Positions 1 to 28,559 of a stretch of DNA of 64,000 nucleotides are shown piece after piece. The notes below the pieces were generated by a model that saw only the letters and a program-made list of their open reading frames with translations, did no database searches and had not been told where the DNA came from. The stretch lies in NCBI RefSeq assembly GCF_022846255.1, contig NZ_AP025682.1; one strand, given 5' to 3'. How positions within the stretch are numbered: the first letter of the stretch is position 1; every line of letters begins with the position of its first letter. This DNA comes from Escherichia coli (GTDB taxonomy: Bacteria > Pseudomonadota > Gammaproteobacteria > Enterobacterales > Enterobacteriaceae). The translations under genes were made by a program, and so were the position numbers.

Positions 1-918
1 CTCCACGTGCCAGTGGTTTCGGATTGCTGTGGCGAACTTCTCTGCGGTTAAATCAGCAGAACTGATATAATATCTGACCGTCATTTCTGGCTATTTCTTT
101 TGTTCTGCTATTATGGACCGAAAGGAGACTGCCACGCATAATTTCTTCAGTCCTTTCCATTCAAACGTGAAATCAATAAGTTCATCAGGGACATCGCAAA
201 CAATATGAAGACGGATTTCTTCTCTGCCGTGACTTTTTTCACTAATTGCGTAACTGTCATGCTCTGGATTATTCAATTCTTTCAGCGGAAATTTTTCCTC
301 GAAGGCTTTATTTAGCCGCCCCTGGTTTCCTTTTACAGCGAATAAATAATCACCTCCCTGTTTTTGTATCTTCTCTGCAATATCTTTCTGGCAACCCATC
401 GCATCAGTTGTGATGATTTTTCCTTTAATATCCAGCATGTTAAGAAGTTCAGGGATAGCTGTAATTTCATTGGATTTCTCATCCGTCCTGATCTGTCCGA
501 TGACCAGACTGTGCATTGTTGAGAACGCACTAATGACATGAATCGCTCCCCTGCGGCGACTCTTGTCATAAGAATGTCGGAGCGTTTTTCCATCAATTGC
601 AATAACGTCTTTATCATCTGAAGAATGGCAGTCACGCATCCAGTTAATAAAGCACTCGTGAAATTTTGCAGGACTGATACAGGATACAACTCTGGCAATG
701 GTATCGTGAACAGGAATACCATTTTCAAAATCACCATATTGCTTCAAAAAATCGAGATGTGTTTCCCCAAAATCCTCTATATCTTCCCAGCCTTCTGCAC
801 CAGAAATAACGGCACAAATAGTCAACAGTAGAATATCCGATAATTTATGTTCCACTTTCCAGGCTTGTCTGTAATCGGGGATAATAGAAATATGTTCCAT
901 CAATTTTTTAAGTACCAT
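1..918 (-). mobile_element. ISAs1-family (H-repeat-associated) transposase gene, disrupted: in-frame TAG at 91-93, homologous reading frame continues to the window edge
   Basis: 275-aa [29 protein letters not shown]... matches the N-terminal three-quarters of E. coli H-repeat/ISAs1 transposases. Reverse-complement of 1-90 continues in frame as [30 protein letters not shown] after the stop. Confidence 0.7.
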
Positions 919-1147
919 TTTGTTCTCCTTAATTATGTAAGGAGTATTTGATCATGTATAAGCAATAAAAAACAGCTTCAGGTAATGAGGAATATCTCAA
1001 TTTTTAAACATAAAATGCGAATTATTTAGTACAAAAAAGCAGCGTTACGTGATCTTTCCCTGACTGTGTAGGAAAACAGGTTTCCAAGCCCTTCCGAACC
1101 ATTCATGCCTGCAAACAAAAGCAGCTGCGGCGGCACCGCACTACCAC

Positions 1148-1468
1148 TTACTGTGACGTTATGCGCCCCGGACCACCGGCAGCAAGCGACGCCGCCGCAT
1201 CCTGAACTGCACCAGCCATATCCGAGATCCCTGCTGCTGCAGCGGCAGCCTGCGCAGCAGCTACTGCTGCTTTAACCAGACCTGACGGTTCCGGCAACGC
1301 ACCAAACAGGTCCGCCGCTGCCTGTTCTGCCATCTCCTCGGCGGCACCAGATACATCGGTTACGGCTGAACCTGTGCTCATACCGCCACTTTCGCCAGCT
1401 ATTGGTGGTGTGGTGATGACGGGTCCACCGTTTCCAGCTGGTTTGTTACCCGTAGATACAAAACTCAT
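1148..1468 (-). CDS. hypothetical small Ala/Gly-rich protein (106 aa), no recognisable domain
   Basis: ORF with an AGGA-containing putative RBS upstream of the ATG; low-complexity A/G-rich translation; GC-rich relative to AT-rich flanks; lies just downstream of a putative immunity gene. Confidence 0.3.
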
Positions 1469-1492
1469 GATATTTATTCCTTTAATATCGGA

Positions 1493-1864
1493 TTAGAATT
1501 TAGCGCCCGGCTGCCAGAAAAAATAAGAAATAACCCGCCACTGTCCATCTTTATAATGAAAAAAACATGTCAGATTTAAATCCCCCCGCAAATGCCAAAA
1601 CATTTCTTTGATGGGAATATTTCTGAATTCAGTATTCGTTGAGCGATAGGTGTTTTCAATTTCTATATAATACTCACCGACAAATTTATAACGAGGCTTT
1701 ATAAATTCATACGCTGGCTGACCATAGTTATTTAATAGAACATTCTCTTCAACTCCATTATACACACCACTCGCATTCAGATAAGCATGCCCAGGAATAT
1801 CAGACATGCTATTTTTCGCCCCACCCACTATCAAAAAAATTATCACAGCGTATATTAGTTTCAT
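1493..1864 (-). CDS. putative periplasmic immunity protein (signal peptide), partner of the upstream HExxH protein
   Basis: N-terminal hydrophobic signal-like segment MKLIYAVIIFLIVGGAKN; start overlaps the stop of the upstream gene by 4 nt (translational coupling); no recognised domain. Confidence 0.4.
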   Translation of the reverse strand: MKLIYAVIIFLIVGGAKNSMSDIPGHAYLNASGVYNGVEENVLLNNYGQPAYEFIKPRYKFVGEYYIEIENTYRSTNTEFRNIPIKEMFWHLRGDLNLTCFFHYKDGQWRVISYFFWQPGAKF

Positions 1865-2601
1865 TTTTTTACGCTTTTCACAAAAAAATTAGAACCCGGA
1901 ACCATTCTATTTAACCGCTCAATGACATTTCTCATATAACGAGAGCGCAGTTCCATACCAATATTCATTAACGCACTGGCGTCCCCGGAGAATGGTGTAG
2001 TTGCTTTATCTGCATCATCACTATAGTATTCATCAGCAAGATATCCAATAATATGCCCAAGCTCGTGAGACAGCCCTATTTGCTCATGGCAAACTTTTGA
2101 TGAGCCAAGACATTTAGCTGCTGCAACTATATCTTTAGAGTCAAGTTCAACGTATCGACTATTCCAGACAATGGAACTCTGTCGAAAACTATTTGGATCA
2201 TCATTATCAATTTTAAACACCACCACATCCCAATACCCATGACGATCAGTCTGAATTATTTCTATTGAGAAAGATAAATCCTTACCATTAAACTTACTGG
2301 CAAACTCAGACTTCCCAGAAACGGATAAAAAAATCTTATTATTCCATGTTTGATTAATGACAAAAATAACTTTCCCATGAAAGGCATTTTTCTCCAAATC
2401 TGTCCAGTCAGTTTTTGCATCCCATCTTTTTATCCAATTATATTTCCATCTCAGCAACAATGAGATTGCACCATTTTCACGGTCAATTCTTAAATCTCCC
2501 CAGGCATCATTGTCCCTGATATATCGTTTATCCAGCATTAAGTCGTCATAAGCATCGTATGCCTGCTGAATAGCTTCATCATGAGAGTCACCCATGTTCA
2601 C
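1861..2601 (-). CDS. putative zinc-metallopeptidase-like protein (HExxH motif), candidate T6SS effector
   Basis: 246-aa ORF with strong RBS (AAGGAGG) and motif SHELGHIIGYLADEY; no signal peptide; followed by an overlapping signal-peptide ORF; located in the effector-rich tail of the T6SS island. Confidence 0.4.
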   Translation of the reverse strand: MNMGDSHDEAIQQAYDAYDDLMLDKRYIRDNDAWGDLRIDRENGAISLLLRWKYNWIKRWDAKTDWTDLEKNAFHGKVIFVINQTWNNKIFLSVSGKSEFASKFNGKDLSFSIEIIQTDRHGYWDVVVFKIDNDDPNSFRQSSIVWNSRYVELDSKDIVAAAKCLGSSKVCHEQIGLSHELGHIIGYLADEYYSDDADKATTPFSGDASALMNIGMELRSRYMRNVIERLNRMVPGSNFFVKSVKK

Positions 2602-2801
2602 CTCCTTATATTGCTATATATCCAATAAACCTGAAGATGCTTGCTTACCCACCAACGCAGACGGGACCAAGGGTAGCCTGAAGTCAACAGATAGCAGTCA
2701 ACTTGAAGTTCATGGGGATATTTGTTTCCCCATCTACACGTTTATCGTCATATTTTTGTATAGCTATTCTCAGCATTCGTGGGTAGATTATTTTTTTCCA
2801 A

Positions 2802-2906
2802 CCGCAGCGCATCCACATACCGCCCCTCGCTGTTCTGCTGCCACAACCAGCCCTGCCCCTGCTGCGCCTGCGTTAACATTTTTGCTAGCCAGCACGGTCA
2901 CGGCAG
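2802..2906 (-). repeat. degenerate ~105-bp copy of the 3' end of tagF (direct repeat of 3902-4007)
   Basis: Read by eye: ccgcagcgcatccacataccgcccctcgctgttctgctgccacaaccagccctgcccctgctgcgcctgcg... aligns with 3902-4007 at roughly 90% identity; the copy lacks the tagF stop context and sits between two effector/immunity modules. Confidence 0.8.
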
Positions 2907-2924
2907 GCAATTCCATGACAGGTA

Positions 2925-3398
2925 CTACTCATCCGTACAACCCAGCCCCCGGCGCTGAACCACTTCACTGGCAAACGTAGCTCCGGTTTTTTTCATTATT
3001 CCTTTTTGTATTTTTTGCAGCGCGGGAAATGAGATTCTCCTGCATGAATCCTCTTCCCATATATCACCAGTTACAGGACTAACTGAAAATAGTCCCCACA
3101 CATCTGTCGCTCCGGCGGAAGGAGAATCATAACCTACCCCAAAACTAAAATACCCAGGATGATACAGGTTACCTTTTTTATCTTTCAGAGAACCGTCAAG
3201 AAAAAACCCAGACAATTCCACATTATATTTTTCATTTTTTAGTGAAAAAACCAATAATGCCTGCGCCTGTATTTCAGTAAGACCTGACTGGTTAACAGTC
3301 GTTAGATCAAACCGCGGCACATTCCTGATAAGAATTTCAGCACAACAATTCACGGACACGACCATGAAAAGCAATACTGATATTAATTTACAGGACAT
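2925..3398 (-). CDS. putative periplasmic immunity protein (signal peptide) for the upstream GH73-like protein
   Basis: N-terminal signal-like segment MSCKLISVLLFMVVSVNCCA; overlaps the upstream gene by 16 nt; no recognised domain. Confidence 0.4.
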   Translation of the reverse strand: MSCKLISVLLFMVVSVNCCAEILIRNVPRFDLTTVNQSGLTEIQAQALLVFSLKNEKYNVELSGFFLDGSLKDKKGNLYHPGYFSFGVGYDSPSAGATDVWGLFSVSPVTGDIWEEDSCRRISFPALQKIQKGIMKKTGATFASEVVQRRGLGCTDE

Positions 3399-3853
3399 GT
3401 TATTCTCCGCTTAACCATATTAATCACCCACACTAACTCACTAGCATAACCGGTATGGCCGCCATTACTGTTTTTACCTGAATTAAAACCAGAATCAATC
3501 AATGCCTGCGCAAATTGCTCCGGAGATTTTTTATTTCTGACCGCATTACCAAATCGGATTGCAAAGGACTTTCCGCTAGTTGAAAAAAAGGTATAAGTGG
3601 CAACCCACACTTGATTACTCCCCAGCGGGTGAACCTGTCCTGACTGTAAAGGTGCCGGACCATGCATGGAAAAGTAGTTATTGTATTCTGTCGCGATTCT
3701 ACCCTGCCCGTAAAAGGACTCCTTTGCAGCAAGCCCCAGGATATTTTCCACAGGCACATCAAGTTGCTTAGCGATTAATTCACATTCTTTCAGATATTGC
3801 TGTACAAACCTGACTGCACCAGTGTTATTACAGGCTTTATCATAAGACCCCAT
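3383..3853 (-). CDS. GH73-like (FlgJ-type) N-acetylglucosaminidase-like protein, candidate peptidoglycan-targeting T6SS effector
   Basis: 156 aa, no signal peptide, RBS AAGGAG; motif LGLAAKESFYGQG...YNNYFSMHG resembles the GH73 catalytic region (AQAALESGWG...NNLFGIK) recalled from memory; immediately downstream of tagF. Confidence 0.45.
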   Translation of the reverse strand: MGSYDKACNNTGAVRFVQQYLKECELIAKQLDVPVENILGLAAKESFYGQGRIATEYNNYFSMHGPAPLQSGQVHPLGSNQVWVATYTFFSTSGKSFAIRFGNAVRNKKSPEQFAQALIDSGFNSGKNSNGGHTGYASELVWVINMVKRRITCPVN

Positions 3854-3880
3854 GATTCACTACTCCTTGTCTGATTATTT

Positions 3881-4651
3881 TTAATGCGGCCGGATATCCA
3901 GCCGCAACGCATCCACATACCGCCCCTCGCTGTTCTGCTGCCAGAACCAGCCCTGCCCCTGCTGCGCCTGCGTCAGCATTTTGTCCGGCCAGCCCGGCCA
4001 CGGCAGGTGGCGCACACCGGGCAGTTCCACTACCGGCACGTCCGGCAGGCCGGTGAGTTCCCGGCTACGCTGCGGTACACGTCGTAAGCCGCGTAGCCAC
4101 TGCGCCCAGCGCGGCCCCGGTCGCCACATCGCCCAGAGCTGGTCTGTCTGCTCCGCCAGTCGACCGCAGCGTTCTGTCTGTGGTGAGACATGAGCTGCCG
4201 TCAACTGCGCCAGCCAGTACAGCCAGCCCTGTGTGTCATCCAGGCTCTCTTCCAGCCATTCCCGCCCGACACGCTGGTAAATCACCAGTGGCCACGGCCT
4301 GCCCGTACTGTCACGCGAGGCGGTCAGGACCCCGGTCAGCCACTCATCGCGCCCGCCAATGGGGAGAAATCCCGGCGACAGCACAAAACTCCACGGCAAT
4401 GGGTGGTGCTCCGGTAGTGCCGTTTTCTCACGTGGTGACAGGTGCATCCAGCCGTCATTTGTTCCGGCCTTCGCAGCATCCGTTCCTTCCGGCAGAACAA
4501 TATGCCGTCCCTGTCCCAGCCACGTTTGCTGGTTCAGCCACGCCTGCCACACCTGCCCTTCGTTCGCGCTCACTCGCCAGCGCACATAGTCCCGCTGGTC
4601 CGGCAGTCTGCCGAACATCGCCGGGGCCGATATCTCTGCCCGGCGCATCAC
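3881..4651 (-). CDS. tagF: T6SS-associated protein TagF (ImpM family)
   Basis: N-terminal FGRLPDQRDYVRW matches the TagF signature (FGKLPxxGDFVxR); W-rich, GC-rich ORF downstream of the tssM/tae4 block. True start may be the internal Met of AMFGRLP. Confidence 0.6.
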   Translation of the reverse strand: MMRRAEISAPAMFGRLPDQRDYVRWRVSANEGQVWQAWLNQQTWLGQGRHIVLPEGTDAAKAGTNDGWMHLSPREKTALPEHHPLPWSFVLSPGFLPIGGRDEWLTGVLTASRDSTGRPWPLVIYQRVGREWLEESLDDTQGWLYWLAQLTAAHVSPQTERCGRLAEQTDQLWAMWRPGPRWAQWLRGLRRVPQRSRELTGLPDVPVVELPGVRHLPWPGWPDKMLTQAQQGQGWFWQQNSEGRYVDALRLDIRPH

Positions 4652-4836
4652 AACGTCCTTACCGGACAGGTGAAGTTTTTCAGCAATTCCCGGTAATACA
4701 GAACATAATTCTTCATTTCAATAATAAAGTCAGATATCAGGATTAATTTTCTTCCACAGGAATCAGAGCATTTATAATAAAATCGCTCAGGCATCCCCCC
4801 AACAAAGAGAACAGGAATCAGCTTCCAATAAAATTG

Positions 4837-5313
4837 TTAATTCAGTTCCCAGAACCAGATTTCCTTGCAGCTAAAATAGCAATGTGAATGACATATAGCA
4901 CCTGTGGTAGAAGGCTCAATAAGATCTATATGACCGCCACCGTAACCCGTAATTTTCCAGAAAAAGACCACTCCTCTTTTATTACTGGTGTCTGTTTTAA
5001 ATTTTTCTGAGTCACACCAGATAACTGGTCTTCCAAAAACATCAGCTCGGGAAAGCTGATCTGCCAGTAATTTCGCACCGGTTTCTATTTTCTTCCCTTT
5101 CCAGTCACCACTTTTGATCGTCAGTCGCCCGTTAAAGCTGACGCCTGATTTAATCAGCGCCAGACTCATACGTGTGGCACAGGTATTTACATAACCAGCA
5201 TTTTGCTGTTGCAGTGCTTCATAGTTATAACCCACTTCACTGTACAAAACATCACCATCAATCTGAACTGATGAGTAATGGTTTTTTTTAAGTGTGAAAA
5301 ATGAAGGTTTCAT
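4837..5313 (-). CDS. tae4: Tae4-family peptidoglycan amidase effector
   Basis: 158 aa; motif NTCATRMSLALIKSG matches the Tae4 catalytic Cys region (NACPIRMSYVLN) and GGGHIDL the His region, by recall of Salmonella/Enterobacter Tae4; no signal peptide; start overlaps the stop of the upstream signal-peptide gene. Confidence 0.65.
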   Translation of the reverse strand: MKPSFFTLKKNHYSSVQIDGDVLYSEVGYNYEALQQQNAGYVNTCATRMSLALIKSGVSFNGRLTIKSGDWKGKKIETGAKLLADQLSRADVFGRPVIWCDSEKFKTDTSNKRGVVFFWKITGYGGGHIDLIEPSTTGAICHSHCYFSCKEIWFWELN

Positions 5314-6005
5314 TTATTATTTCCTTTATCACAGGAGTGTTTACTTAGTGCCTCAATAATAATATTTGCAGCCCGTTCATTCAGTTTATCTGACGTTTTT
5401 TTTCTGAAATACCAGTAAATAATCTCATCCAGTGTAACTGTTTTAATCGTTTTATAATCGCACCATGTTTTTCTTTCCGTGGCATCTTCTATACCCAAAA
5501 GATAGATTTTCGCATTAAGCCTATCCTGCCTGTTATCTGACTGCCAGAAGCGGAAAAAATCATCTCCGTTCAGATCGAACGCGCCAGAGGTCAGGTGTGA
5601 AACAGATGAATGCCGGGGAGATTTTTTTTCCGGTGATGCCATATCCGGGCAGGGAAACAGCCTGACCATCGCTTGTTCAATCAGAGTTGAAGCTCGCATA
5701 TTCATATCGTTAACCGACTGCTGATTAAGATATGTCAGTACCGATGAATAAAGTTCTATTTCATTAATCTTATTATATCCACACCAGGTTTTACTTTCTG
5801 TCGCATCACTCACACCAAGGACATACATCAGAACATTTTCTTTTTCCTGTGACGTTCCACGAGCATAAAATGACAAAAATTCCTGCGCACTGAGATTAAT
5901 ATAATCGGGGTCAATAGTTCCTGTGTTTTTTCTGATATCAGCAAAAACATTTCCTGACATGGCATATAACAAAAAAATAATAAAAAAACGCGTATATTGT
6001 TGCAT
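5310..6005 (-). CDS. tai4: Tai4-like periplasmic immunity protein, internally tandem-duplicated (two homologous domains)
   Basis: Signal peptide MQQYTRFFIIFLLYAMSGNVFA; the two halves are visibly homologous (…VLMYVLGVSDATESKTWCGYNKI… versus …KIYLLGIEDATERKTWCDYKTI…); 4-nt overlap with tae4. Confidence 0.5.
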   Translation of the reverse strand: MQQYTRFFIIFLLYAMSGNVFADIRKNTGTIDPDYINLSAQEFLSFYARGTSQEKENVLMYVLGVSDATESKTWCGYNKINEIELYSSVLTYLNQQSVNDMNMRASTLIEQAMVRLFPCPDMASPEKKSPRHSSVSHLTSGAFDLNGDDFFRFWQSDNRQDRLNAKIYLLGIEDATERKTWCDYKTIKTVTLDEIIYWYFRKKTSDKLNERAANIIIEALSKHSCDKGNNK

Positions 6006-6251
6006 ATCATGCTTCCTGAATCACGGTAGTAGGATGGTCGCTATAACGTCGGTTTAAGAAAGTTTATAGTTTTGTTGCGTCGTTGCCCTGCCATCTCAGT
6101 ATATAAGTGACATTAATGGTGCCTTTTTGCTCACCTGGTGTAACGGCCTGTTTTAGCATACAACTCCACGTCAAGACATCCGTGAATGCAGCCTTTAGCA
6201 TAGTCACATGGGTCCGGTAGTCTGCCAACGATACTGCCGCCGCCCGGCGTA

Positions 6252-9200
6252 TCACAGCGCTCGCTCCGGGCAGGCGAAGCGTTGTAATAGTCCGCGATCC
6301 ACTGGGTCAAAATCCCGTCCGGCGGTGATTTCCAGTATCACCCGCCGCCCGTCAAAGCTGTACTCCACCTGCTGTGTTCCCCGTACCGCCGTTTCTTGCG
6401 CTTTTCCCGCATCCAGCAGGTGAAACAGCGCCCACGGTCCATTAGTCAGCAGCGTCGAGGTGTCCTGGCGGATGCGCGGGCTGGCGGTTATTTCCGCCAT
6501 TGAGCCGTTGCGCGGACCCGGCCAGTTCACTTTCAGCGGCCTGACCGGGCCGTGAGCGTAACGCAGTACCTGGCCGTCAATGTCAATCACCAGTTCGGTG
6601 ATGGCCGGGTCCATATCCACGACGCGGACCTGCATCGCCCATGAGAACTTTTTCCCTCCGTCGCCGTTAAAAAACACGCTGCGGATCTGTTTCGCCTCCT
6701 GAAACGGCGTCAGGTCTGGACCCTGTAAGGTCATGTTGCCTTCGGTCGGTTTGTAGCGCCACGGGTTGCTGGCGGTATCCGCCAGTGGGGCCAGTTGCTT
6801 CGTCCAGAAGGCATCCAGCACGCCGCCGCTGGCAAAGATACGGTTAAAATCGTCCGCGCTGACCTCCTGCGGGCTGTCGGTGAAGGGGTAGCGCCCGTCG
6901 ATGGCGTCGCGGCACTCATCACCGATCACCGCCTCCATCTGCGCGTTCAGCACTTCACCGGTGCCGGCGTTGATTTTTCGCGTTCCCTGCTGCGTGAGAT
7001 CCAGCAGAATATTTTTCAGCGGCGCGGGCAGTTTTGCCGCCTCCAGTTGCAGTTTATCCGCCGCAGAAATGCGCCCCGGCAGAGTGCTCGCAGCCAGCGC
7101 ACTGTCGGCAATGGTGAGCTGGGTGTAGTACTCATTGAGCATCGTCAGCAGCGAATTTAATTGCGGCACGCCGCCGCCCTGCCCGCTGTCCGTCTGCCCG
7201 GAAACCACTTCCCGCAGGGCGGCGAAACGGTCATCCACCAGTGATTTTTCCAGCCGCTCTTCCGGGTGAATGTCCTGCAACAGCTTCGCCGTCTGCACCG
7301 CTTTTCCCGCATTGCCGGAGAGCCGGTCCTGCGCGCGCTGGGCCATCTGCTTTTGTCTGGCCTGCGCATTCAGCGGCGGCACCAGCGTGGTCTGCTCCAC
7401 CACCGCTTTACTCAGGCGCATCAGCGGGGAATCCGGCGAGGCCAGAGTACGCAGCACCTGAAGGTCATACGCTAGTCCAGGGCTACCGTCCTCCCCGGCG
7501 CTGTTGATGCTGTGAATGCTTGCCAGAAAATCCTGCCATCGGCGAGCATATTCAGCCAGGTACAGACGACGTACCTCACGGGTAACCGGGAGTTCCTGCC
7601 CCGGCAACTGGCTCATCACAATATCAGTCGTTTTTTTTTGCGCACTTTCCCGGCCCATCACCCAGGCGTCGTCCGCTGATGCGGCGGCGACAAACTCCGA
7701 CAGCCGTTTGTCGAACAGTTCCCGGTAGCCTTCGCGGGTGAAGATGCCGGGCACGCCCCTGTCCAGCGGCGCGCCATCCGTGCGGACAAAAACTGTTCCC
7801 GCATCCGCGCCCACAGCGCGAACCAGCGAAAACTCCTGCGGTGCTTCGCTCTCCATGGAAGCCAGGGCTCGAGTGTAGATACGCTCAGTGCTGGTATGGC
7901 CGTCAAGGAAGGCCCGCGCCTGGCGGATCAGCCCCTCATCTTTTTCCCAGGGCGAATGCACCACGCGGCTGCCGTCAAACAGGGCGTCAATATGCTCCAG
8001 CACGGCTGCGCGACCGCCAAACTCCGCTACGCTGTCGCGGTTGTCCAGATCGTTCAGCACCCAGGCGTGGATCTCCGCCGCGTTGTATTTGTCCTCGTGG
8101 TCCTTATCGAGGTTCAGCAGCAGATAAACATGCAGGGCGTCATAGGCGGCTTTGCTGTCCTGACGCGCAATCGCATCTGAAAGCACGTATTCCATTCGTT
8201 TCACCAGCGGAGGGAGCAGTAGCTGGTCCAGCAGGCGGTCATACAGGGATGCGACACTCTCCATCACCGGCGGGACGCTGTAAAGACCATAACGCCAGGC
8301 CAGCGGCGGCGAGTCCGGGTCCAGCCCCGGCCAGGCAGAGAGCGCCCGCGCCTGGTTCAGCAGGGCCGGAACAGGCTGCATAGCAGGTTTTCCGGTATAG
8401 GCTTTGACATCACCATCCAGTTGGGTCGTCCGGCTGGCGATTTCATTCAGATAACCGCTGTTACCCTGCTGGCTACCCTGCATTCCCTGCCACAACCAGA
8501 AAGCCAGCGCCAATACCAGCAGATGCCCGCCGGTACGCAGCAGGCGATAACGCCAGGCCCATTGAAGATTCGGCTCCACCAGGTGCGCTTCGCGGAAGAT
8601 AAACTGCGTCAGTAGATCGTGCAGGAAATAGCTGCGGTTGCCGTCCGGCAGGGTATGGGATGGGGAATCCGCCTTCCCTTTGATCGCCCGGACAAAACGC
8701 TGCCAGATGCCCGTCTGATCGGCCACCGCGTCTGCCTGCGCCTGCGCGGCACTGGTGAAAAATACGCCGCGCAGGGTGTTGTTAAGCTGGGTAGCATCAA
8801 ATTTTGAATCGAGGAAAATCTGTTCAATAGCTTCCAGCAGCGGCGCACCCAGCGCGGCAAATTCACGCGGGAAGCGGTAGAGCCGCTGACGGCTTTTAAG
8901 GTCATATTCTTCCTGCAACCGGGTATCCAGCCCCTGATCCAGCCGCTGTGTCAGGTTTGCCAGTTCCCGGCCACAGAGCGCATGCAGCGACTGCGGATCG
9001 CTGGCGTGACGCCTGCGGCTGTAAGGCAGGGTGAAGCCCCAGACCTGGGCTCGCAGGTGACTGGTCAACCCACGGAAATACTCCGTAAAGCCCGGCAGCA
9101 GATCCATCTTGGTGACAACCAGATAGACCGGAAAACGAATGCCCAGCGTCTCCCGCAGTTCCGCCAGCCGCGCACGCAGAGCTGCACAGGCAGCCAGCCG

Positions 9201-10118
9201 TTCCGCCGGGGACTGCGCGGTCAGATCCGCCACGTTCAGCGTCAGGATCACGCCGTTGAGCGGTGCGCCGGGGCGGTGTTTACGCAGCAGTCCCAGAAAC
9301 CCCTGCCACTCCCCGGCGTTGCGCTGGGTCGCGCTGATTTCGCCACCGTCATCGTGGCGAGCATAGCGCCCGGCGGTGTCAATAAGCACTGCTTCGTTGG
9401 TAAACCACCAGTCGCAGTGCAGCGTGCCGCCGCCCGGCACGGTGAGAATATGCGCGGTTTGCTCCATCTGCTCCGCCAGCGGAAACTGTAGCCCGGTGTT
9501 AAGCAGCGCGGTGGTTTTACCATCGCCGGGGCTGCCGATAACCATAAACCACGGCAGCTCGTACAGAAAACGCTTTCCTTCCAGGACTTTTCGCCAGCCA
9601 GGAAGATCCACACGCAGTTGTTTCAGTTGCCGGATGGCGCGGTTGACAATATGGCTGACGGTACGCAGGTCGGCTTTAATTTCCCCCTCCACCGGTACGT
9701 CTTCCCCACGCGGATGCAGGAAACGGCGCAGCAGTTGTTCATCCAGACGCAGCGCCCGCCACAGCCGGTACAGGCCATACAGCGCATAAGTCAGCAGGAT
9801 CAGACCGATAAGCGTCAGACGCAGCCACAGCGGCGCAAATGGATGAACATCACCGAGGGACAGCAGGGGTGAAACAAAACCGATGACCAGGCACAGAACC
9901 GTCACGCCAATGATGCTCATCGACCAGTTAACCAGCCACAGTGCGAGGAACATCAGTAACAGAACGATGGTGACTACCCGACTTCCCACAGACGCGAGCG
10001 GATGCACGGTGTCAAACGCCACCAGCGGCCCGATAAACCAGACCAGCAGCGCCAGTACCGCCACGCCGACAACAGCCAGCGCGCGGCGGGAAAACAGCAG
10101 ACTGAGAAATTTTTGCAT
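6252..10118 (-). CDS. tssM: T6SS membrane core protein TssM (IcmF family)
   Basis: 1288 aa; N-terminal transmembrane segments, Walker A GSPGDGKTT, large periplasmic C-terminal region; typical IcmF architecture. Confidence 0.9.
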   Translation of the reverse strand: MQKFLSLLFSRRALAVVGVAVLALLVWFIGPLVAFDTVHPLASVGSRVVTIVLLLMFLALWLVNWSMSIIGVTVLCLVIGFVSPLLSLGDVHPFAPLWLRLTLIGLILLTYALYGLYRLWRALRLDEQLLRRFLHPRGEDVPVEGEIKADLRTVSHIVNRAIRQLKQLRVDLPGWRKVLEGKRFLYELPWFMVIGSPGDGKTTALLNTGLQFPLAEQMEQTAHILTVPGGGTLHCDWWFTNEAVLIDTAGRYARHDDGGEISATQRNAGEWQGFLGLLRKHRPGAPLNGVILTLNVADLTAQSPAERLAACAALRARLAELRETLGIRFPVYLVVTKMDLLPGFTEYFRGLTSHLRAQVWGFTLPYSRRRHASDPQSLHALCGRELANLTQRLDQGLDTRLQEEYDLKSRQRLYRFPREFAALGAPLLEAIEQIFLDSKFDATQLNNTLRGVFFTSAAQAQADAVADQTGIWQRFVRAIKGKADSPSHTLPDGNRSYFLHDLLTQFIFREAHLVEPNLQWAWRYRLLRTGGHLLVLALAFWLWQGMQGSQQGNSGYLNEIASRTTQLDGDVKAYTGKPAMQPVPALLNQARALSAWPGLDPDSPPLAWRYGLYSVPPVMESVASLYDRLLDQLLLPPLVKRMEYVLSDAIARQDSKAAYDALHVYLLLNLDKDHEDKYNAAEIHAWVLNDLDNRDSVAEFGGRAAVLEHIDALFDGSRVVHSPWEKDEGLIRQARAFLDGHTSTERIYTRALASMESEAPQEFSLVRAVGADAGTVFVRTDGAPLDRGVPGIFTREGYRELFDKRLSEFVAAASADDAWVMGRESAQKKTTDIVMSQLPGQELPVTREVRRLYLAEYARRWQDFLASIHSINSAGEDGSPGLAYDLQVLRTLASPDSPLMRLSKAVVEQTTLVPPLNAQARQKQMAQRAQDRLSGNAGKAVQTAKLLQDIHPEERLEKSLVDDRFAALREVVSGQTDSGQGGGVPQLNSLLTMLNEYYTQLTIADSALAASTLPGRISAADKLQLEAAKLPAPLKNILLDLTQQGTRKINAGTGEVLNAQMEAVIGDECRDAIDGRYPFTDSPQEVSADDFNRIFASGGVLDAFWTKQLAPLADTASNPWRYKPTEGNMTLQGPDLTPFQEAKQIRSVFFNGDGGKKFSWAMQVRVVDMDPAITELVIDIDGQVLRYAHGPVRPLKVNWPGPRNGSMAEITASPRIRQDTSTLLTNGPWALFHLLDAGKAQETAVRGTQQVEYSFDGRRVILEITAGRDFDPVDRGLLQRFACPERAL

Positions 10119-15276: not shown

Positions 15277-15729
15277 CTATTTACATGTCACAGATACCGA
15301 TGACTCTCCTGGTACCCGCTGCCCCGGCAAAGAAGATGCCTGGCACTGTGTCGCCAATGCAGGGACCGGTTGTGATAACCAAACCTGTCCATGGTTATAA
15401 ATACAGGAAACCCAGTAACGTTCACTATTCTGATTACTGGCCATTGTGGTATCCCATATTTGCCTGGTTTCACCCTTTATTGTCTCTGTCTCTGGTTTTA
15501 GATCCACCCGATTTTCAGGTTTTCCCTGCGACATCCCTACCCCGTCCAACCACAGACGGGGTTCATAGCGGGAAGATCTCTGCCACGATGCAGATATATC
15601 TGGCTCCAGTACTGTTGTTGAGGATTTTATATTGATAAACACGGGGCAACTGACTTCCCACGCAGTAACAAATTGTGAATAAAACAACATAAAACCCAAC
15701 AACAGAGAAAAAATAAAACGTGTCCCCAT
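15277..15729 (-). CDS. secreted Cys-containing protein, putative immunity protein for the upstream small protein
   Basis: 150 aa with signal-like N-terminus MGTRFIFSLLLGFMLFYSQFVTA; AT-rich; directly downstream (13-nt gap) of a 135-aa cytoplasmic-type ORF. Confidence 0.35.
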   Translation of the reverse strand: MGTRFIFSLLLGFMLFYSQFVTAWEVSCPVFINIKSSTTVLEPDISASWQRSSRYEPRLWLDGVGMSQGKPENRVDLKPETETIKGETRQIWDTTMASNQNSERYWVSCIYNHGQVWLSQPVPALATQCQASSLPGQRVPGESSVSVTCK

Positions 15730-18638: not shown

Positions 18639-19202
18639 TTAATGTCCATCAATTGACCAGTGAGGTATATCTGTATTGCCGCCAACAAATTTTCTGACGC
18701 CGTAACCCAGACCTACCGCCTGAAGCTGGGCATTCATTCCGGTTCGAGGTAGTGTATTAATTGCAACATTCTGACCATTGCTCCCCGCAATTGTTAATGT
18801 TCCGCTCCAACTGATATTCATATCTATCGCAGTACCGCGTGTATGGTTGGAGCTCAGTGCAGGCGCGACATTCAGATTATTCATACCATAGGCCGTAACC
18901 ATAGCCTGCGCCGCTTCAAGCGAGGCTTGCTCAGTCGGGTGAACCCACTCAATATCCACCCCCTCCATCGCCGGGACGTTTTTTGCCTGAACGATTTCAT
19001 GAGCAATCAACCATGACCAGTGCATGAGATATGCTCTGGCGGGAGGGCGATATGTTGCAGAAATACTGACCCTTGCGCGTGCATTACCAAGCGCTCGCAA
19101 AAAATTATCTACCGATGCACGAAAAGTCCCCTGCAAATCATTAGTGGAAGAACTTCCAGGAAAGCGACTGACCCACAGTGCGCCACTTAATTCTTTTGCC
19201 AT
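18639..19202 (-). CDS. M15/LAS-family zinc peptidase-like protein, candidate peptidoglycan peptidase effector
   Basis: 187 aa, no signal peptide; motif SSNHTRGTAIDMN fits the M15 signature S-x-H-x-x-G-x-A-x-D, with a downstream His pair (DIPHWSIDGH); located between clpV and tssB. Confidence 0.45.
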   Translation of the reverse strand: MAKELSGALWVSRFPGSSSTNDLQGTFRASVDNFLRALGNARARVSISATYRPPARAYLMHWSWLIAHEIVQAKNVPAMEGVDIEWVHPTEQASLEAAQAMVTAYGMNNLNVAPALSSNHTRGTAIDMNISWSGTLTIAGSNGQNVAINTLPRTGMNAQLQAVGLGYGVRKFVGGNTDIPHWSIDGH

Positions 19203-22180: not shown

Positions 22181-23095
22181 ATGAAACCAAATATTACGTG
22201 GGGACTCCAAAAAATACAGGCGCACGGGATCGCCGATAACACAATTTACGCGACTGAAGGAACCCAAATTATCTTCACCGTTACCTCACCCTGGATTCCT
22301 GTTTTTGAGGTGAATGATGATGTAAAGATTGCCCTCAGTCTGACCCGCCACGAAGAAGCATGGTGGATTATCAATCAGTCTACCGAATATTGCTGTACGG
22401 TAAACGACCAGATTGTGGAACCTCATCACCGTATGCGTCTGAATGAAGGCGACCTGATAGAATGGGGGTTATCTTCATGGTGCCTTGTGCACGGCAATCC
22501 ATCATCTCCGGACCTGAGCGCAGTAAAAACGACATCGCAGACTGCCACCATGTCGGAAACAATAACCGAATATCTGGATCTGGATTGGTTCAGGCAGCAG
22601 CATCTGACATCACAAAATCCATTCGATATCATTCCTGTTCATGGAGCCTCCTCCACTGGAGAAGATGCTAAAAAAGAAAATGCCCTGACTCGACTTTATC
22701 AGGAATACCGCGAGGCGTTGTTATCTCCTGAACAAGATCTTCATCGCCATGCTGATCCTTTTCCTTTTAACGAAGAGCCCTCCTCACAGGATCTGGATTC
22801 ATTGCGTGATCTGGTCACTGAAGCCGAGACATTGCAGGATATGGTCACTGGCGGGTTAAGCATTGACGCTATTCTCGATGTCCTGGACGCCACCGGCGAA
22901 GGGGAAACCGCCTGGCCTGCCGAAAAGACACCCCCAGATATCCTGCACCTGCTATCCCCGGAATGCGCACCGGAAACAGCGCATAACACCGTTCTACCCG
23001 ACCTGACACGCAAAGAGCATCGCATCATTGGCATTGACAGCCATTATCGGATAAACCCGGCACAACACGGAGAGATATCTCATGACAAACAATAA
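22181..23095 (+). CDS. FHA-like domain protein (TagH/Fha-like T6SS accessory protein)
   Basis: 304 aa; N-terminal region loosely fits the FHA pattern (…SLTRHEEAWWI…TVNDQIV…LNEGDLIEWG); first gene of the plus-strand T6SS operon. Domain call is tentative. Confidence 0.4.
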   Translation: MKPNITWGLQKIQAHGIADNTIYATEGTQIIFTVTSPWIPVFEVNDDVKIALSLTRHEEAWWIINQSTEYCCTVNDQIVEPHHRMRLNEGDLIEWGLSSWCLVHGNPSSPDLSAVKTTSQTATMSETITEYLDLDWFRQQHLTSQNPFDIIPVHGASSTGEDAKKENALTRLYQEYREALLSPEQDLHRHADPFPFNEEPSSQDLDSLRDLVTEAETLQDMVTGGLSIDAILDVLDATGEGETAWPAEKTPPDILHLLSPECAPETAHNTVLPDLTRKEHRIIGIDSHYRINPAQHGEISHDKQ

Positions 23096-23912
23096 CGAGC
23101 TACCGGCTACCCTGTCGGCGCTGCTGCGGGATTATTCCGTGGCGGAGGGCATTCAAATGGCAGAGCAGCAGGTCAGGATGTACCCGGCGCAGGCCTCCCG
23201 CCGCCACAGCCTATTTCAGTTATTGTGCGTGGCAGGCTACTGGTCGCGGGCACTGCAACAGATCCAGCTATGCGCCCGGATGGACGCAAATTATACCCGC
23301 GAAGCGCAGGTATTTGGCGAGCTGATACGCTGTGAGATATACCGCCACGCCTGCTTTCAGGGAGAACAGCGGCCCGATTTTATTCTCCCGCCGCCCGCCT
23401 GGATGGAGGATCTGCTGACCGCCCTCGCCTGTAACGCTCGTGGTGAAGCGCAGGAAGCTGACGCCCACCGCAGCCGCGCACTTGAGGCCATAACAGATAC
23501 TGCAGGGCAGTGGAATGGCGGCGCATTTGACTGGATTAGCGACAGCGACTCCCGTACCGGTCCGGTACTCGAACTCATCGCGGGCGGAGTATATATCTGG
23601 CTGCCGTTTTCACAAATCTGTTCGCTAAAATCGCCGCGGCCTGCGCATCTGACCGATTTGATCTGGAAACCCGTCAACGTCACACTGAATAATGGCGACA
23701 CACACAGTGCCTGGCTGTTTTCCCGCTACAGCGGCTCTGAAAAGGCTGCCGACTCCCTGCGTCTGTGCCGGGAAACGGTCTGGCAGGACGGGCCGGGAGA
23801 GACTCTGGTACAGGCGCTGGGTCAGAGGGTGTGGCTCACCGGTCACGGCGATATCAGCCTGCTGGATTTGTCCACCTGTACCTTTAACACCGCTGAAGGA
23901 AGCGACGCGTGA
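23082..23912 (+). CDS. tagJ: T6SS accessory protein TagJ (ImpE family)
   Basis: 276 aa; size and position directly upstream of tssE; ImpE-like composition; overlaps neighbours at both ends (operon coupling). Confidence 0.5.
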   Translation: MTNNNELPATLSALLRDYSVAEGIQMAEQQVRMYPAQASRRHSLFQLLCVAGYWSRALQQIQLCARMDANYTREAQVFGELIRCEIYRHACFQGEQRPDFILPPPAWMEDLLTALACNARGEAQEADAHRSRALEAITDTAGQWNGGAFDWISDSDSRTGPVLELIAGGVYIWLPFSQICSLKSPRPAHLTDLIWKPVNVTLNNGDTHSAWLFSRYSGSEKAADSLRLCRETVWQDGPGETLVQALGQRVWLTGHGDISLLDLSTCTFNTAEGSDA

Positions 23913-24418: not shown

Positions 24419-26302
24419 ATGGATCCACGGCTACTGGAATACTACAACCGCGAACTGAGCTATCTGCGGGAAACGGGAGCCGAATTTGCCGCCCGTCATC
24501 CTAAAGTCGCCGCCCGACTGGGTATGCAGGGAACGGATATTGCCGATCCGTATGTGGAGCGAATGGTCGAGGCCTTCAGCTTCCTGACCGCCCGCACGCA
24601 GCTAAAAATTGACGCTGAATTCCCCCGTTTCACCCAGCGTCTGCTGGAAGTGGTCAGCCCCAATTACGTCACACCCACGCCCTCAATGAGCGTGGCGCAG
24701 CTTCATCCCGATCCGGAAGAAGGCGATCTGGCGAAGGGATTCACCGTCCCGCGCAACACGGCCTTTTTTTCCGCCATTCCGGAAGGCGAAAGTACCGCCT
24801 GCCAGTTTCGTAGCAGCCAGAATGTGACGCTGTGGCCGCTTGCCATCGAAGAGGTGCGGCTGACCGCCGCGCCGCCGGATATGCCTGCCCTGCACCGCTA
24901 CCTGCCAGCCAACATTCACGTCGCTGGTGCGCTGCGTATTACCCTGCGCACCTTTGGTGAACTGACGTTCAGTCAGCTTGCAGGGCTGAACAAGCTGCCA
25001 TTTTATCTCTGCGGCGAGGAGCGCACGGCCTCACACCTGTTCGAACTACTGCATACCAGCGCCATCGCGAGCCTGGCTGGCATTCCGGGGCATTTTGACG
25101 GCGCACTGGATGTGAATCTGAAACAGCCCGTTATGTACGAAGGCCTGGATCCGGATCAGGGACTGTTGCCGCTGGCGTGGAATGTGTTTCACGGCCATAA
25201 CCTGCTACATGAATATTTTACCTGTCCGGAACGCTTCTTTTTTTTCACCCCGACAGGCCTGTCTGACGGGTTACAGAAAATTAACGGCGGCGTGGCGGAG
25301 ATTGTTATCCTGCTGAACCGCCTGCCGCCGGACTGGCTGATCCACCAGACAAACGCGGCACAGTTCAGCCTGTTCTGTACCCCGGTTATCAACCTGTTTC
25401 CCCGCGTCGCCGCCCGGATCGATGTCACGCACAGCACGACGGAACAGCATCTGGTGGTGGACAGAACCCATCCGCTGGATTATGAGGTGTTCTCGGTCCA
25501 AGAAGTGGAAGGGCTGGAAACTGACACCACACGGAAGATGGCCTTTCGCCCGCTCTACCACACCCGCAATAATGATGAAGGCAATCACGGACGTTATTTT
25601 TCCCTGCGCCGGGAGCCGCGCCGGTTGTCGGAAAATGCCCGCCGCTATGGCACCCGCACCTCCTATACAGGATCAGAAGTGTTCCTGTCGCTGGTTGACC
25701 AGTATGAAGCGCCGTACCCGGAAAATCTGCGCCATATCACCATCACGGCTATGGTCACCAACCGCGATCTGCCCTGTCTTATTGCCCGCAATGGACGGGA
25801 CGATCTGACCGTGGATGCGGCCATCCCGGTGGCGGGTGTGGGGCTTATCCGTCCGCCGCGTCCGCCGCAGCCTCCGCTGGCTGAACGTGAAATGGCCTGG
25901 CGGTTGATCCGCCAGTTATCCTTTAACTATCTGCCGCTGGCCGATCTGGATCACCGTACCGGTGGTCAGGCGCTGCGCGATCTGCTTAACCTGTTTATTC
26001 CGGCGCATGACAGTCCGCAGTCGCGCCAGGTGCGCAGCCTGATTGGCTGCAACACCACCCCGGTCACCCGCCGTCTGCCCGGTTCCGGGCTGCTGGTCTA
26101 TGGGCGCGGCGTCAGTTGTGAACTGACCGTGGATGAGGAGGGGTTCTCCGGTATCAGTCCGTATCTGTTCGGTCTGGTGTTGGAGCACTATATCGCCCGT
26201 CATGTTTCCATTAATACCTTCTCGCAGATGACGCTGCACAGCATGCAGCGCGGCAAAATTATGACCTGGCCTGCCAGGACGGGACAGCGGGGAAGCGTAT
26301 GA
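24419..26302 (+). CDS. tssF: T6SS baseplate protein TssF
   Basis: 627 aa; N-terminus MDPRLLEYYNRELSYLRETGAEFAARHPKVAARLG is the TssF signature. Confidence 0.85.
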   Translation: MDPRLLEYYNRELSYLRETGAEFAARHPKVAARLGMQGTDIADPYVERMVEAFSFLTARTQLKIDAEFPRFTQRLLEVVSPNYVTPTPSMSVAQLHPDPEEGDLAKGFTVPRNTAFFSAIPEGESTACQFRSSQNVTLWPLAIEEVRLTAAPPDMPALHRYLPANIHVAGALRITLRTFGELTFSQLAGLNKLPFYLCGEERTASHLFELLHTSAIASLAGIPGHFDGALDVNLKQPVMYEGLDPDQGLLPLAWNVFHGHNLLHEYFTCPERFFFFTPTGLSDGLQKINGGVAEIVILLNRLPPDWLIHQTNAAQFSLFCTPVINLFPRVAARIDVTHSTTEQHLVVDRTHPLDYEVFSVQEVEGLETDTTRKMAFRPLYHTRNNDEGNHGRYFSLRREPRRLSENARRYGTRTSYTGSEVFLSLVDQYEAPYPENLRHITITAMVTNRDLPCLIARNGRDDLTVDAAIPVAGVGLIRPPRPPQPPLAEREMAWRLIRQLSFNYLPLADLDHRTGGQALRDLLNLFIPAHDSPQSRQVRSLIGCNTTPVTRRLPGSGLLVYGRGVSCELTVDEEGFSGISPYLFGLVLEHYIARHVSINTFSQMTLHSMQRGKIMTWPARTGQRGSV

Positions 26303-28482: not shown

Positions 28483-28559
28483 TGGCGGAACGGACGGGAC
28501 TCGAACCCGCGACCCCCTGCGTGACAGGCAGGTATTCTAACCGACTGAACTACCGCTCC
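28483..28559 (-). tRNA. aspV: tRNA-Asp (GUC)
   Basis: Reverse complement reads GGAGCGGTAGTTCAGTCGGTTAGAATACCTGCCTGTCACGCAGGGGGTCGCGGGTTCGAGTCCCGTCCGTTCCGCCA; adjacent to dnaQ as in E. coli. Confidence 0.92.

Follow-up and report, generated by a model that had tools for sequence, protein, structure and literature searches.

Between tagF and a remnant of vgrG in an aspV-linked T6SS island of Escherichia coli (assembly GCF_022846255.1, contig NZ_AP025682.1) lie two small overlapping genes, and the question raised by this locus is whether they encode a T6SS effector and its cognate immunity protein. None of the T6SS core genes is missing from the island (tssA, B, C, hcp, E, F, G, clpV, J, K, L and M are present), and the core genes in the window, the whole stretch of 64,000 nucleotides analyzed here, are all full length. 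Known effector/immunity cassettes (Tae4/Tai4, Tge2/Tgi2 and Tlde1) adjoin the pair. The GC content of the cassette is 36–39%, versus 61–66% in the core genes. Upstream, the cassette is bounded by the tagF 3′ repeat that had been described as a scar in the original prediction: positions 2797-2907 match 3897-4007 at 90% over 111 nt, and in strain VCSW7 the annotation of this duplicated end reads partial TagF. Downstream, the vgrG remnant has intact relatives that are the vgrG of a vgrG-eag-rhs module. Here an ISEc1 region stands in place of the remainder of vgrG and of the genes for the Eag chaperone, the Rhs protein and the Rhs immunity protein; positions 1-1063 of the window match positions 712-1774 of locus L001 at 97%, annotated as an ISAs1-like ISEc1 transposase. 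In this window, the pair is one unremarkable part of a mosaic T6SS island.

Table. Features of the candidate effector/immunity locus (positions within the window)
Feature	Position	Strand	Remarks
ISEc1/H-repeat transposase region	1..1063	.	abuts deletion junction
vgrG 5′ remnant	1060..1468	-	frameshift after residue ~101, then cut by deletion
Partner gene	1493..1864	-	123-aa exported protein (predicted); putative cognate immunity protein / protease inhibitor
Effector gene	1861..2595	-	244-aa standalone metzincin-like zinc metallopeptidase (predicted), without signal peptide
M210 codon in S/A-L-M-N-I-G	1966..1968	-	putative Met-turn; then conserved R217, R219 and C-terminal helix
DEY codons (D188, E189, Y190; residues 188-190)	2026..2034	-	conserved motif
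HELGH codons (H177, E178, H181; residues 177-181)	2053..2067	-	two zinc ligands and catalytic Glu (predicted), active-site helix
Duplicated tagF 3′ end	2797..2907	.	scar of Tge2/Tgi2 cassette insertion; upstream boundary of cassette
Upstream neighbors of pair	2925..4651	-	tagF, Tge2-like and Tgi2PP-family genes
Tgi2PP-family immunity gene	2925-3398	-	
Glucosaminidase Tge2-like effector	3383-3853	-	
tagF	3881-4651	-	

The first of the two genes had been proposed as an ORF of 246 aa, and such an ORF is indeed present on the minus strand (1861..2601), starting from a GTG at 2601. Because this GTG falls inside the Shine-Dalgarno sequence AAGGAGGTG, the true start is likely the ATG at 2595, which is preceded by a strong ribosome-binding site and gives a protein of 244 aa. 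This start agrees with RefSeq, which annotates the gene as a 735-nt CDS in other E. coli strains; the E. coli/E. marmotae allele of the enzyme is annotated only as ‘hypothetical’. The enzyme has an acidic N-terminus (MGDSHDEAIQQAYDAYDD...) that lacks a hydrophobic segment, in line with the earlier claim that it carries no export signal. The partner, by inspection and hydropathy, begins with what reads as a Sec-type signal or anchor (MKLIYAVIIFLIVGGAKNS), and the stop codon of the enzyme gene overlaps its start codon as ATGA at 1861-1864. Both the 123-aa signal-peptide ORF and this overlap had been anticipated and are borne out. A scan for promoters and terminators returned counts equal to those of shuffled controls.

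The enzyme contains SHELGHIIGYLADEY, in which the original prediction saw an HExxH motif with a downstream acidic residue. The motif reads HELGH followed by DEY, and H177, E178 and H181 are invariant in all 96 aligned homologues; therefore, the HExxH is not a chance match. Conservation extends to the DEY residues (D188 in 94/96, E189 in 95/96 and Y190 in 94/96) and to a Met-turn-like SxMNxG, within which M210 is found in 82 homologues and replaced by Leu in 10. Farther along, G213 (95/96), R217 (90/96) and R219 (92/96) are nearly as constant, and G184 occurs in 67/96. In the metzincin clan, a third zinc ligand, His or Asp, is expected three residues past the Gly; D188 lies four residues past G184, and farther in most members owing to a loop insertion. 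D188 would be the third zinc ligand, E189 would be the family-specific residue, and Y190 may be a tyrosine switch.

Structure prediction is consistent with this assignment. The model used here was an AF2 run on the 96-sequence alignment; with only 7 sequences the catalytic half was poorly modeled (pLDDT 66). In the model, residues 174-182 form a helix that corresponds to the HExxH active-site helix, and a C-terminal helix follows M210 at residues 218-231. The predicted structure matches the overall metzincin fold, with its five-stranded sheet, backing helix and active-site helix, and the enzyme is thus predicted to be metzincin-like. A Foldseek search of the model against the PDB gave no significant match.

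The original prediction had not recognized the family, and this fits the profile libraries: there is no Pfam or NCBIfam model for it. Pfam gave the enzyme sub-threshold matches to M64 and M57 only, NCBIfam matched neither protein, PHROGs and PADLOC gave no matches, sequence searches of the PDB with the enzyme returned motif-level matches only, and the partner had no Pfam or PDB match. Several known families were considered for the enzyme. Membership in M64/igalysin (PF09471) was rejected, as the enzyme matches at E = 0.016 over just 28 residues, only 1/96 members match at E ≤ 1e-3, and the 96-sequence profile reaches PDB entry 3p1v at E = 0.049 with only the motif covered. Igalysins also carry a structural zinc site made of the family-specific Glu and three Cys, plus a wrapping domain (PMC12237041). 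The present enzyme has no Cys after residue 169 of its 244 and no extra domain. Tox-MPTase, M91 and HopH1 were rejected because none of them appears among the Pfam matches of the 96 members, even at E ≤ 0.1, and the protein is standalone. VgrG2b-type membership was rejected as well, and the papers found on other T6SS metallopeptidases deal with unrelated families.

A word-indexed homologue search recovered only 6 enzyme clusters and missed Salmonella, and an exhaustive profile search was then used. The enzyme family comprises 334 representatives at 50% identity and is widespread, with members in E. coli, Salmonella, the bee-gut genus Snodgrassella and marine Flavobacteriaceae, among others. 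Several of the metagenome contigs that bear homologues are too short to show gene context. Fifty distant loci in GTDB genomes were found with a 10-sequence alignment of the HEFGH subgroup, and therefore sample that subgroup rather than the enteric clade. In 47 of these 50 loci, drawn from Acidobacteriota, Alpha-, Beta- and Gammaproteobacteria, and Bacteroidota, a member of the partner family lies directly downstream of the enzyme on the same strand, as it does in 7/7 loci collected earlier. By heuristic criteria, a signal peptide or lipobox is present in 49/54 partners (a lipobox in at least 29), versus an N-terminal hydrophobic stretch in 1/123 enzymes. Together with the low-GC, polymorphic cassette, this co-occurrence and export asymmetry support the earlier description of the genes as an effector/immunity-like pair.

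The distant loci also speak to the link with the T6SS. In 16 Bacteroidota loci vgrG follows immediately after the pair, often with Rhs genes next, and at one Mesorhizobium locus the pair closes a T6SS core operon (tssA-B-C-hcp-E-F-G-clpV). Counted over all 50 loci, vgrG or T6SS core genes adjoin the pair in 17. With the tagF-pair-vgrG order of E. coli and SPI-6, these loci place homologues beside T6SS genes, as the original prediction needed. Within 10 kb, 32/50 loci have no T6SS gene recognized by a panel of E. coli queries, which may miss divergent systems; these include the Snodgrassella and Bryobacterales copies, set among housekeeping genes. Clustering with T6SS genes is therefore not obligatory for the family. 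One could instead imagine a protease/inhibitor pair that has nothing to do with the T6SS, in which the enzyme leaves by another route or acts inside the producer and the partner either guards the periplasm as a safety inhibitor or acts as a folding chaperone. Parallels would be serralysin-Inh and the Acinetobacter T2SS metzincin CpaA, whose membrane chaperone is CpaB. We consider such a pair unlikely here. The enzymes lack signal peptides, which excludes T2SS or Sec export, and they have no C-terminal repeats of the T1SS type. A chaperone would share the compartment of its client, whereas the partner is exported, and that role was rejected. It is also hard to see why else the pair should recur beside vgrG in two phyla, and T6SS effector/immunity pairs commonly lie as orphans far from the apparatus.

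Closer relatives show how the locus varies within the enterics. The gene order around the pair is the same in E. coli strains whose vgrG-Eag-Rhs module is intact. At least two alleles occupy this E. coli locus, the present one in 18 and another in 35 of 5426 complete genomes. In Salmonella SPI-6 the pair again lies between tagF and vgrG, with an enzyme homologue 48% and a partner homologue 54% identical. At one such locus (L004), genes for proteins of 243 and 144 aa are followed by vgrG, Eag and Rhs, and the two proteins match the pair by BLASTP at E = 5e-69 (enzyme) and 1e-44 (partner). A C-terminal remnant of another allele is also found in Salmonella.

The conserved position beside tagF and vgrG across phyla would also suit a T6SS accessory enzyme, that is, a peptidase that remodels the envelope or cell wall for its own machine, like TagX or the recruited MltE, with the lipoprotein partner as a regulator. 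The fusion of some homologues to peptidoglycan-binding domains lends itself to this view too. Several observations make an accessory role very unlikely. The gene is not a core gene, as its sparse distribution among E. coli genomes attests; many Salmonella serovars have the locus without the pair (PMC11669294); and the GC content is low, as in the neighboring cargo cassettes. The enzyme has no signal or transmembrane segment with which to reach the periplasm of its own producer, and allelic replacement with remnants is typical of effector/immunity loci.

The closest folds to the predicted structure include host-directed toxins, namely fragilysin/BFT and IgA protease, and the carriers include gut and pathogenic strains of E. 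coli and Salmonella. Both facts would fit a protease effector aimed at eukaryotes or across kingdoms, one that cuts a host protein as fragilysin or NleD-type effectors do, and a dual role is conceivable. To such a target we attach very little probability. An exported partner, seen in nearly all of the distant loci, is the signature of antibacterial effectors that act in the periplasm, and free-living marine Flavobacteriaceae, soil Acidobacteriota and Rhodobacteraceae carry the family in abundance.

What has been observed is the structure of the genes, the conservation of the motifs, the predicted fold, the synteny with T6SS genes, the co-occurrence of the partner and the asymmetry in export signals. 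From these observations we infer that the pair is probably a periplasm-acting T6SS cargo metallopeptidase and its inhibitor-type immunity protein. The secretion, toxicity, inhibition and substrate that we propose would run as follows. The enzyme, a small standalone zinc endopeptidase, would be made in the cytoplasm without a signal peptide and loaded onto the T6SS spike, most likely on the VgrG encoded just downstream in intact loci. An effector gene upstream of vgrG, as here, is less usual than one downstream. The spike would then fire the enzyme into the periplasm of neighboring Gram-negative cells. There, zinc would be held by H177, H181 and D188, water would be activated by E178, and Y190 and the M210 turn would complete a metzincin-type site. 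The substrate would lie in the cell envelope and be a (lipo)protein of the periplasm or outer membrane, or else the peptide portion of peptidoglycan. An envelope target is supported by independent fusions, N- or C-terminal, to LysM, PG_binding_1 and OmpA-like domains in family members that lack signal peptides even so. The PG_binding_1 fusion is the weaker argument, since this domain also serves as the MMP pro-domain. The 123-aa partner, exported to the periplasm of the producer, would bind and block enzyme arriving from sister cells, in the manner of a tight-binding protease inhibitor. The literature that we searched contains no report of T6SS-dependent secretion or delivery of this enzyme family, nor of its toxicity, neutralization or catalysis, Salmonella included.

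Whether this particular copy still works is a separate matter. Since the adjacent vgrG is a pseudogene remnant, frameshifted and truncated at the ISEc1 junction, the effector may be stranded in this genome unless another VgrG carries it, and the immunity gene would still protect. Relic copies occur beside vgrG and Rhs fragments in other E. coli strains. The locus could accordingly be a decaying relic here, delivery having been lost with the vgrG-eag-rhs module so that only the immunity function matters, and we see this as a real but lesser possibility. Both ORFs are intact and 100% identical in DNA to copies in strains where vgrG is intact, the T6SS core genes are undamaged, and other vgrG genes may exist beyond the 64-kb window. 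The relic reading concerns the state of this copy and not the function of the family.

If the pair is a cargo peptidase with its inhibitor, it would be useful in several respects. Protease effectors of the T6SS are poorly understood and, to our knowledge, those tested are of the VgrG2b type only. The present family is tractable, being small, confidently folded in silico, widespread, and accompanied by a conserved candidate inhibitor. It could be used to find the envelope target cut by a proteolytic antibacterial effector, to study a new protease-inhibitor interface, and to learn how cargo encoded upstream of vgrG gets loaded. For annotation, two ‘hypothetical proteins’ become a named effector/immunity candidate pair. 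A bolder and distinctly tentative reading is that the enzymes form a cross-phylum metzincin family, absent from Pfam, NCBIfam and the PDB, which, with its own and likewise uncatalogued lipoprotein inhibitor family, makes up a conserved [peptidase-inhibitor-vgrG] module in the T6SSi of proteobacteria and the T6SSiii of Bacteroidota. Such a family might be defined by the zinc site HExxHxxG-x(3-10)-DEY plus SxMNxG, and might act on one particular protein of the envelope, for example a lipoprotein or an outer-membrane tether, rather than on peptidoglycan. Were this true, the family would supply a T6SS toxin that works by proteolysis on a defined protein target.

The nearest known systems are in Salmonella. 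Proteins of 243 aa from SPI-6 VR2, labeled ‘Reprolysin_4’ or ‘Peptidase_M64’ and accompanied by exported or membrane partners, have been proposed as candidate effectors (Blondel et al. 2023, PMC10469887). The downstream partners are 84-144 aa long, with a signal peptide or transmembrane segment. L004 shares the size, position and partner features of these candidates of ~243 aa and has the same weak Pfam matches; the weak Reprolysin_4/M64 matches are shared by the VR2 candidates and this family, and the L004 enzyme, like the present one, carries HExxH...DEY...MNIGxxLRxRY motifs. By size, location, serovars, partner features and domain labels, the published Salmonella candidates appear to be homologues of this pair, and the Salmonella homologues are probably STox_19, listed as ‘STox_19, metallopeptidase, antibacterial’ (PMC12994826, supplement file 3). 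Through its SPI-6 homologues the pair thus appears to join an already published type of candidate effector. The Salmonella papers label the candidate a peptidoglycan amidase from a weak domain match. We find this label doubtful, because we know of no metzincins that are peptidoglycan hydrolases, and the predicted fold gives it no particular support.

Among characterized enzymes, the igalysins (MEROPS M64; Thomasclavelia ramosa IgA protease; PDB 3P1V and 4DF9) come closest in their motif, HExxHxxxGxxDEY compared with HExxHxxGxxxDEY here. The two motifs agree in the DEY and in the distance between the second His and the Asp. Igalysins also have a Met-turn and a C-terminal helix, both of which are predicted for the present enzyme. 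The igalysin motif Asp binds zinc (PMC12237041). Closest in presumed action are the C-terminal metallopeptidase of VgrG2b from P. aeruginosa (PDB 6H56) and SARI_02727 from S. arizonae SPI-20, both HExxH zinc peptidase effectors of the T6SS that are toxic in the prey periplasm and neutralized by an exported immunity protein (PMC6899460; PMC12992299); the present pair would work alike. Tox-MPTase2-5, M91 and HopH1 (Zhang et al. 2012, PMC3482391) are likewise HExxH toxin domains of polymorphic toxin and T6SS systems with adjacent immunity genes. However, they form the C-terminal domains of Rhs/PAAR proteins, and their immunity proteins are mostly cytoplasmic, whereas the enzyme described here is standalone. 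In genetic organization, the pair is most like Tae4/Tai4, Tge2/Tgi2 and Tlde1/Tldi1, with which it shares a small enzyme that lacks a signal, an overlapping gene downstream that encodes an exported immunity protein (putative here), and a low-GC cassette between core genes. It differs from them in catalytic class, as the enzyme here is predicted to be a metzincin-like metallopeptidase.

The candidate effector and candidate immunity genes overlap. As the original prediction had read it, the stop codon of the HExxH ORF overlaps the start of the 123-aa ORF. The overlap is an ATGA, and the product of the second ORF begins with MKLIYAVIIFLIVGGAKNS, which reads as a Sec-type signal or anchor by inspection and hydropathy. 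The HExxH protein itself had been described as 246 aa long and devoid of an export signal. The ORF, the motif (HELGH at residues 177–181, followed by DEY at 188–190) and an acidic N-terminus without hydrophobicity were all recovered, but the length was not. Because the upstream GTG sits within the Shine-Dalgarno sequence AAGGAGGTG, an ATG is next at 2595, and RefSeq gives this gene a 735-nt CDS in other E. coli strains, the product is most likely 244 aa. Exact sequences of both proteins occur on about 650–700 public contigs from E. coli and E. marmotae, under the name 'hypothetical protein' in every case.

No curated family claims the enzyme, in keeping with the first reading, which had not recognized one: NCBIfam holds no family for it, Pfam returns sub-threshold matches only (Peptidase_M64, E = 0.016; M57, E = 0.24), and a PDB sequence search gives motif-only matches. 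Clustered at 50% identity, the homologues recovered by an exhaustive profile search (E ≤ 1e-3) number 334 representatives, and most of these are standalone proteins of ~215 aa. In an alignment of 96 representatives, His 177, Glu 178 and His 181 are invariant, which argues that the HExxH is a real motif. Conservation extends to Asp 188 (94/96), Glu 189 (95/96), Tyr 190 (94/96), Asp 205 (90/96), Met 210 (82/96), Gly 213 (95/96), Arg 217 (90/96) and Arg 219 (92/96), giving the family signature HExxHxxG-x(3-10)-DEY ... D-x2-S-[IL]-M-N-x-G-x2-L-R-x-R-[HY]. Identity with Rhs-fused Tox-MPTase, M91 or HopH1 was rejected, as none of the 96 members matches those domains.

An AlphaFold2 model built on the 96-sequence alignment (pLDDT 94.4, pTM 0.88) consists of a mixed sheet, a backing helix (66–83), an active-site helix (174–182), a long loop and a C-terminal helix (218–231). 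Cys 162 and Cys 169, found throughout the enteric clade and in roughly one in four family members, flank the strand ahead of the active-site helix and would fit a disulfide formed only once the protein is delivered to the periplasm. The enteric clade also possesses an additional N-terminal helix (residues 4–24), absent from the ~215-aa members, that could, speculatively, be a loading determinant.

The partner has no match in Pfam, NCBIfam or PDB, and its family shares a C-terminal core, GE[FY]...E..W...LT.WFH...W....F-stop. A profile of enteric and distant partners was run on all ORFs of 50 GTDB loci retrieved with a subgroup of the enzyme family, which come from Acidobacteriota (Bryobacterales), Alphaproteobacteria (Mesorhizobium, Sphingomonas, Rhodobacteraceae), Betaproteobacteria (Snodgrassella), Gammaproteobacteria (Methyloprofundus) and many Bacteroidota. 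A partner-family ORF was found directly downstream of the enzyme, on the same strand, in 47 of the 50; the three loci without a clear partner comprise one truncated contig and two marginal matches. An N-terminal hydrophobic signal is present in 49 of 54 partners, with a lipobox in at least 29, and a hydrophobic N-terminal stretch in 1 of 123 full-length enzymes. T6SS effector/immunity pairs that act in the periplasm, among them Tae4/Tai4 of the same island, share this plan of a signal-less enzyme and an exported cognate protein, which places the probable site of enzyme action outside the cytoplasm. Some Bacteroidota carry tandem partner-family ORFs, two per locus (coordinates, together with those of the Cochleicola modules described below: L025 10649–11641; L040 10569–11520; L055 4470–6540 and 10001–12842).

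Homologues of the pair proved to be linked to T6SS loci, contrary to what would have refuted the original prediction. The gene order in Salmonella SPI-6 is tssM-tagF-[243 aa]-[144 aa]-vgrG-DcrB-Rhs, with 48% (enzyme) and 54% (partner) identity to the window's pair. The Salmonella partner gene is followed by a 124-aa ORF (L004 6387–6761), what is left of the C-terminal part of another, distinct member of the peptidase family (HEIGH...DEY...MNIGTELREHY), which suggests that alleles have been replaced here. E. coli has a second allele (233 aa, ~35% identical) at the same yafV/aspV locus, beside vgrG and Rhs fragments; it occurs in 35 of 5426 complete genomes, and the window's allele in 18. In some E. 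coli strains (L011/L012 8895–12356, from MB20 and another strain), the dnaQ-yafV locus has lost the whole T6SS and keeps a relic, which is what the 35 of 5426 genomes carry: a vgrG fragment, the 233 + 128 aa allele pair, and the C-terminal tip of an Rhs protein together with the matching immunity gene.

Among the 50 distant loci, vgrG begins within ~1 kb past the partner in 16 from Bacteroidota (2.6 kb in one), and Rhs genes frequently lie farther on. Cochleicola has two [enzyme-partner-vgrG] modules ~6 kb apart, the upstream one visible only as a partner fragment and vgrG, and one Mesorhizobium locus places the pair directly behind tssA-B-C-hcp-E-F-G-clpV. The remaining distant loci gave no T6SS gene within 10 kb with a panel of E. 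coli queries, which divergent systems may escape. In Snodgrassella and Bryobacterales the two genes are inserted on their own among housekeeping genes; effector/immunity pairs commonly occur as orphans. Near one distant orphan pair, a further unit of two overlapping genes (L006 1200–2365; 166 aa + 222 aa, faint Peptidase_C92 match) adjoins NERD and restriction-endonuclease genes and may be a toxin/defence islet.

The window contains a complete T6SS island in which the small low-GC cassettes between core genes are known effector/immunity pairs, and the series ends with the pair described here. Its GC content is 36–39%, versus 61–66% for tagF and tssM; the cargo cassettes together (the pair, Tge2/Tgi2 and Tae4/Tai4; 1400–6000) span 36–41%, the core being compared at 3800–4600 and 6200–10100. 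The island is sharply mosaic, with acquired cassettes set among the core genes. The tagF repeat scar noted earlier upstream of the pair was confirmed as a direct repeat of 90% identity that flanks the Tge2/Tgi2 cassette, and strain E04, which lacks this cassette, has a single tagF end. The duplicate marks the Tge2/Tgi2 insertion site.

Features of the window, with coordinates where available
Feature	Coordinates	Strand	Remark
ISEc1/H-repeat transposase region	1-1063		junction with vgrG at ~1060
vgrG	1060-1468	-	pseudogene remnant
Partner ORF	1493-1864	-	123 aa
HExxH ORF	1861-2601	-	from GTG
tagF 3' repeat	2797-2907 and 3897-4007		111 nt, direct
tagF	3881-4651		island gene
STY0301-family protein	15277-15729	-	inside T6SS core
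T6SS-core ORF	18639-19202	-	187 aa; no NCBIfam match
T6SS-core ORF	23082-23912	+	276 aa; no NCBIfam match
tRNA-His (ARAGORN)	26085-26178	+	94 nt; inside tssF coding region
tRNA-Asp aspV	28483-28559		end of island
T6SS island genes			tssA, tssG, tssF, tssE, tagK; clpV, tssB, tssC, hcp, tssJ, tssK, tssL, tssM
Known cassettes			Tlde1 + immunity gene; Tae4/Tai4; glucosaminidase (Tge2-like) + Tgi2PP-family protein

The tRNA-His call is probably spurious; the true boundary of the island is the tRNA-Asp.

Other E. coli strains have, downstream of the pair, vgrG and then genes for a DcrB/Eag-type chaperone, an Rhs toxin and the immunity protein to that toxin. In the window, vgrG is frameshifted after ~residue 101 (...AAGGPG) and cut by the transposase region, and the Eag chaperone, Rhs toxin and its immunity genes are deleted. 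The VgrG of this locus (7157–9370, minus strand, in the comparison locus L001; 1148–1468, minus strand, in the window) is unusual in its N-terminal extension of ~110 aa, rich in Ala and Gly, the canonical VgrG domain (TIGR03361) beginning at residue 112.

We propose that the enzyme is a cargo effector carried on the spike, most likely by the neighbouring VgrG, and delivered into the prey periplasm, where a His-His-Asp zinc site with Glu 178 as general base would cleave an envelope substrate. The partner would act in the periplasm as an immunity protein of the inhibitor type and, in most taxa, would be a lipoprotein. Some homologues, likewise without signal peptides, are fused to LysM, PG_binding_1 or OmpA-like domains, which suggests a site of action on the cell wall or close to it. 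Yet metzincins are endopeptidases of proteins, none to our knowledge a murein hydrolase, and the MMP pro-domain is itself a PG_binding_1 domain. A protein and the peptide part of peptidoglycan are thus, in our estimate, similarly probable targets.

The analysis shows directly how the genes are arranged, how well the motif is conserved, which fold is predicted, and the synteny, the co-occurrence of the partner and the asymmetry of export signals. The original observation is confirmed, and its reading as a possible metallopeptidase effector with an immunity-like partner is supported to the extent that sequence allows. Work on Salmonella had already predicted this kind of pair, of which the window would hold E. 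coli representatives: a metzincin-like T6SS effector that no catalogue lists, and an exported immunity family dedicated to it. To this we add an invariant catalytic signature and a confident predicted fold, a two-gene module conserved across phyla, its recurrent place directly upstream of vgrG in Enterobacteriaceae and Bacteroidota alike, and the loss of the neighbouring vgrG for the window's copy. While such a family will not surprise a T6SS specialist, it is a good way into the question of what proteolytic T6SS toxins cut.

Proteins of 243 aa encoded in variable region 2 of Salmonella SPI-6 and carrying 'Reprolysin_4' or 'Peptidase_M64' domains have been put forward as candidate effectors, their partners of 84–144 aa being exported or membrane proteins (PMC10469887); a serovar list is given in PMC11669294, and the candidates are probably those entered as 'STox_19, metallopeptidase, antibacterial' in PMC12994826 (supplement file 3). 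Matched by description, these are very likely the Salmonella proteins retrieved here, since the two sets agree in size, location, serovars, features of the partner and weak Pfam matches. Neither these three papers nor the others found in literature searches report an experiment on the enzyme family. T6SS metallopeptidase effectors that have been tested, VgrG2b and SARI_02727 (PMC6899460; PMC12992299), work like the effector proposed here but belong to a different, gluzincin-type family.
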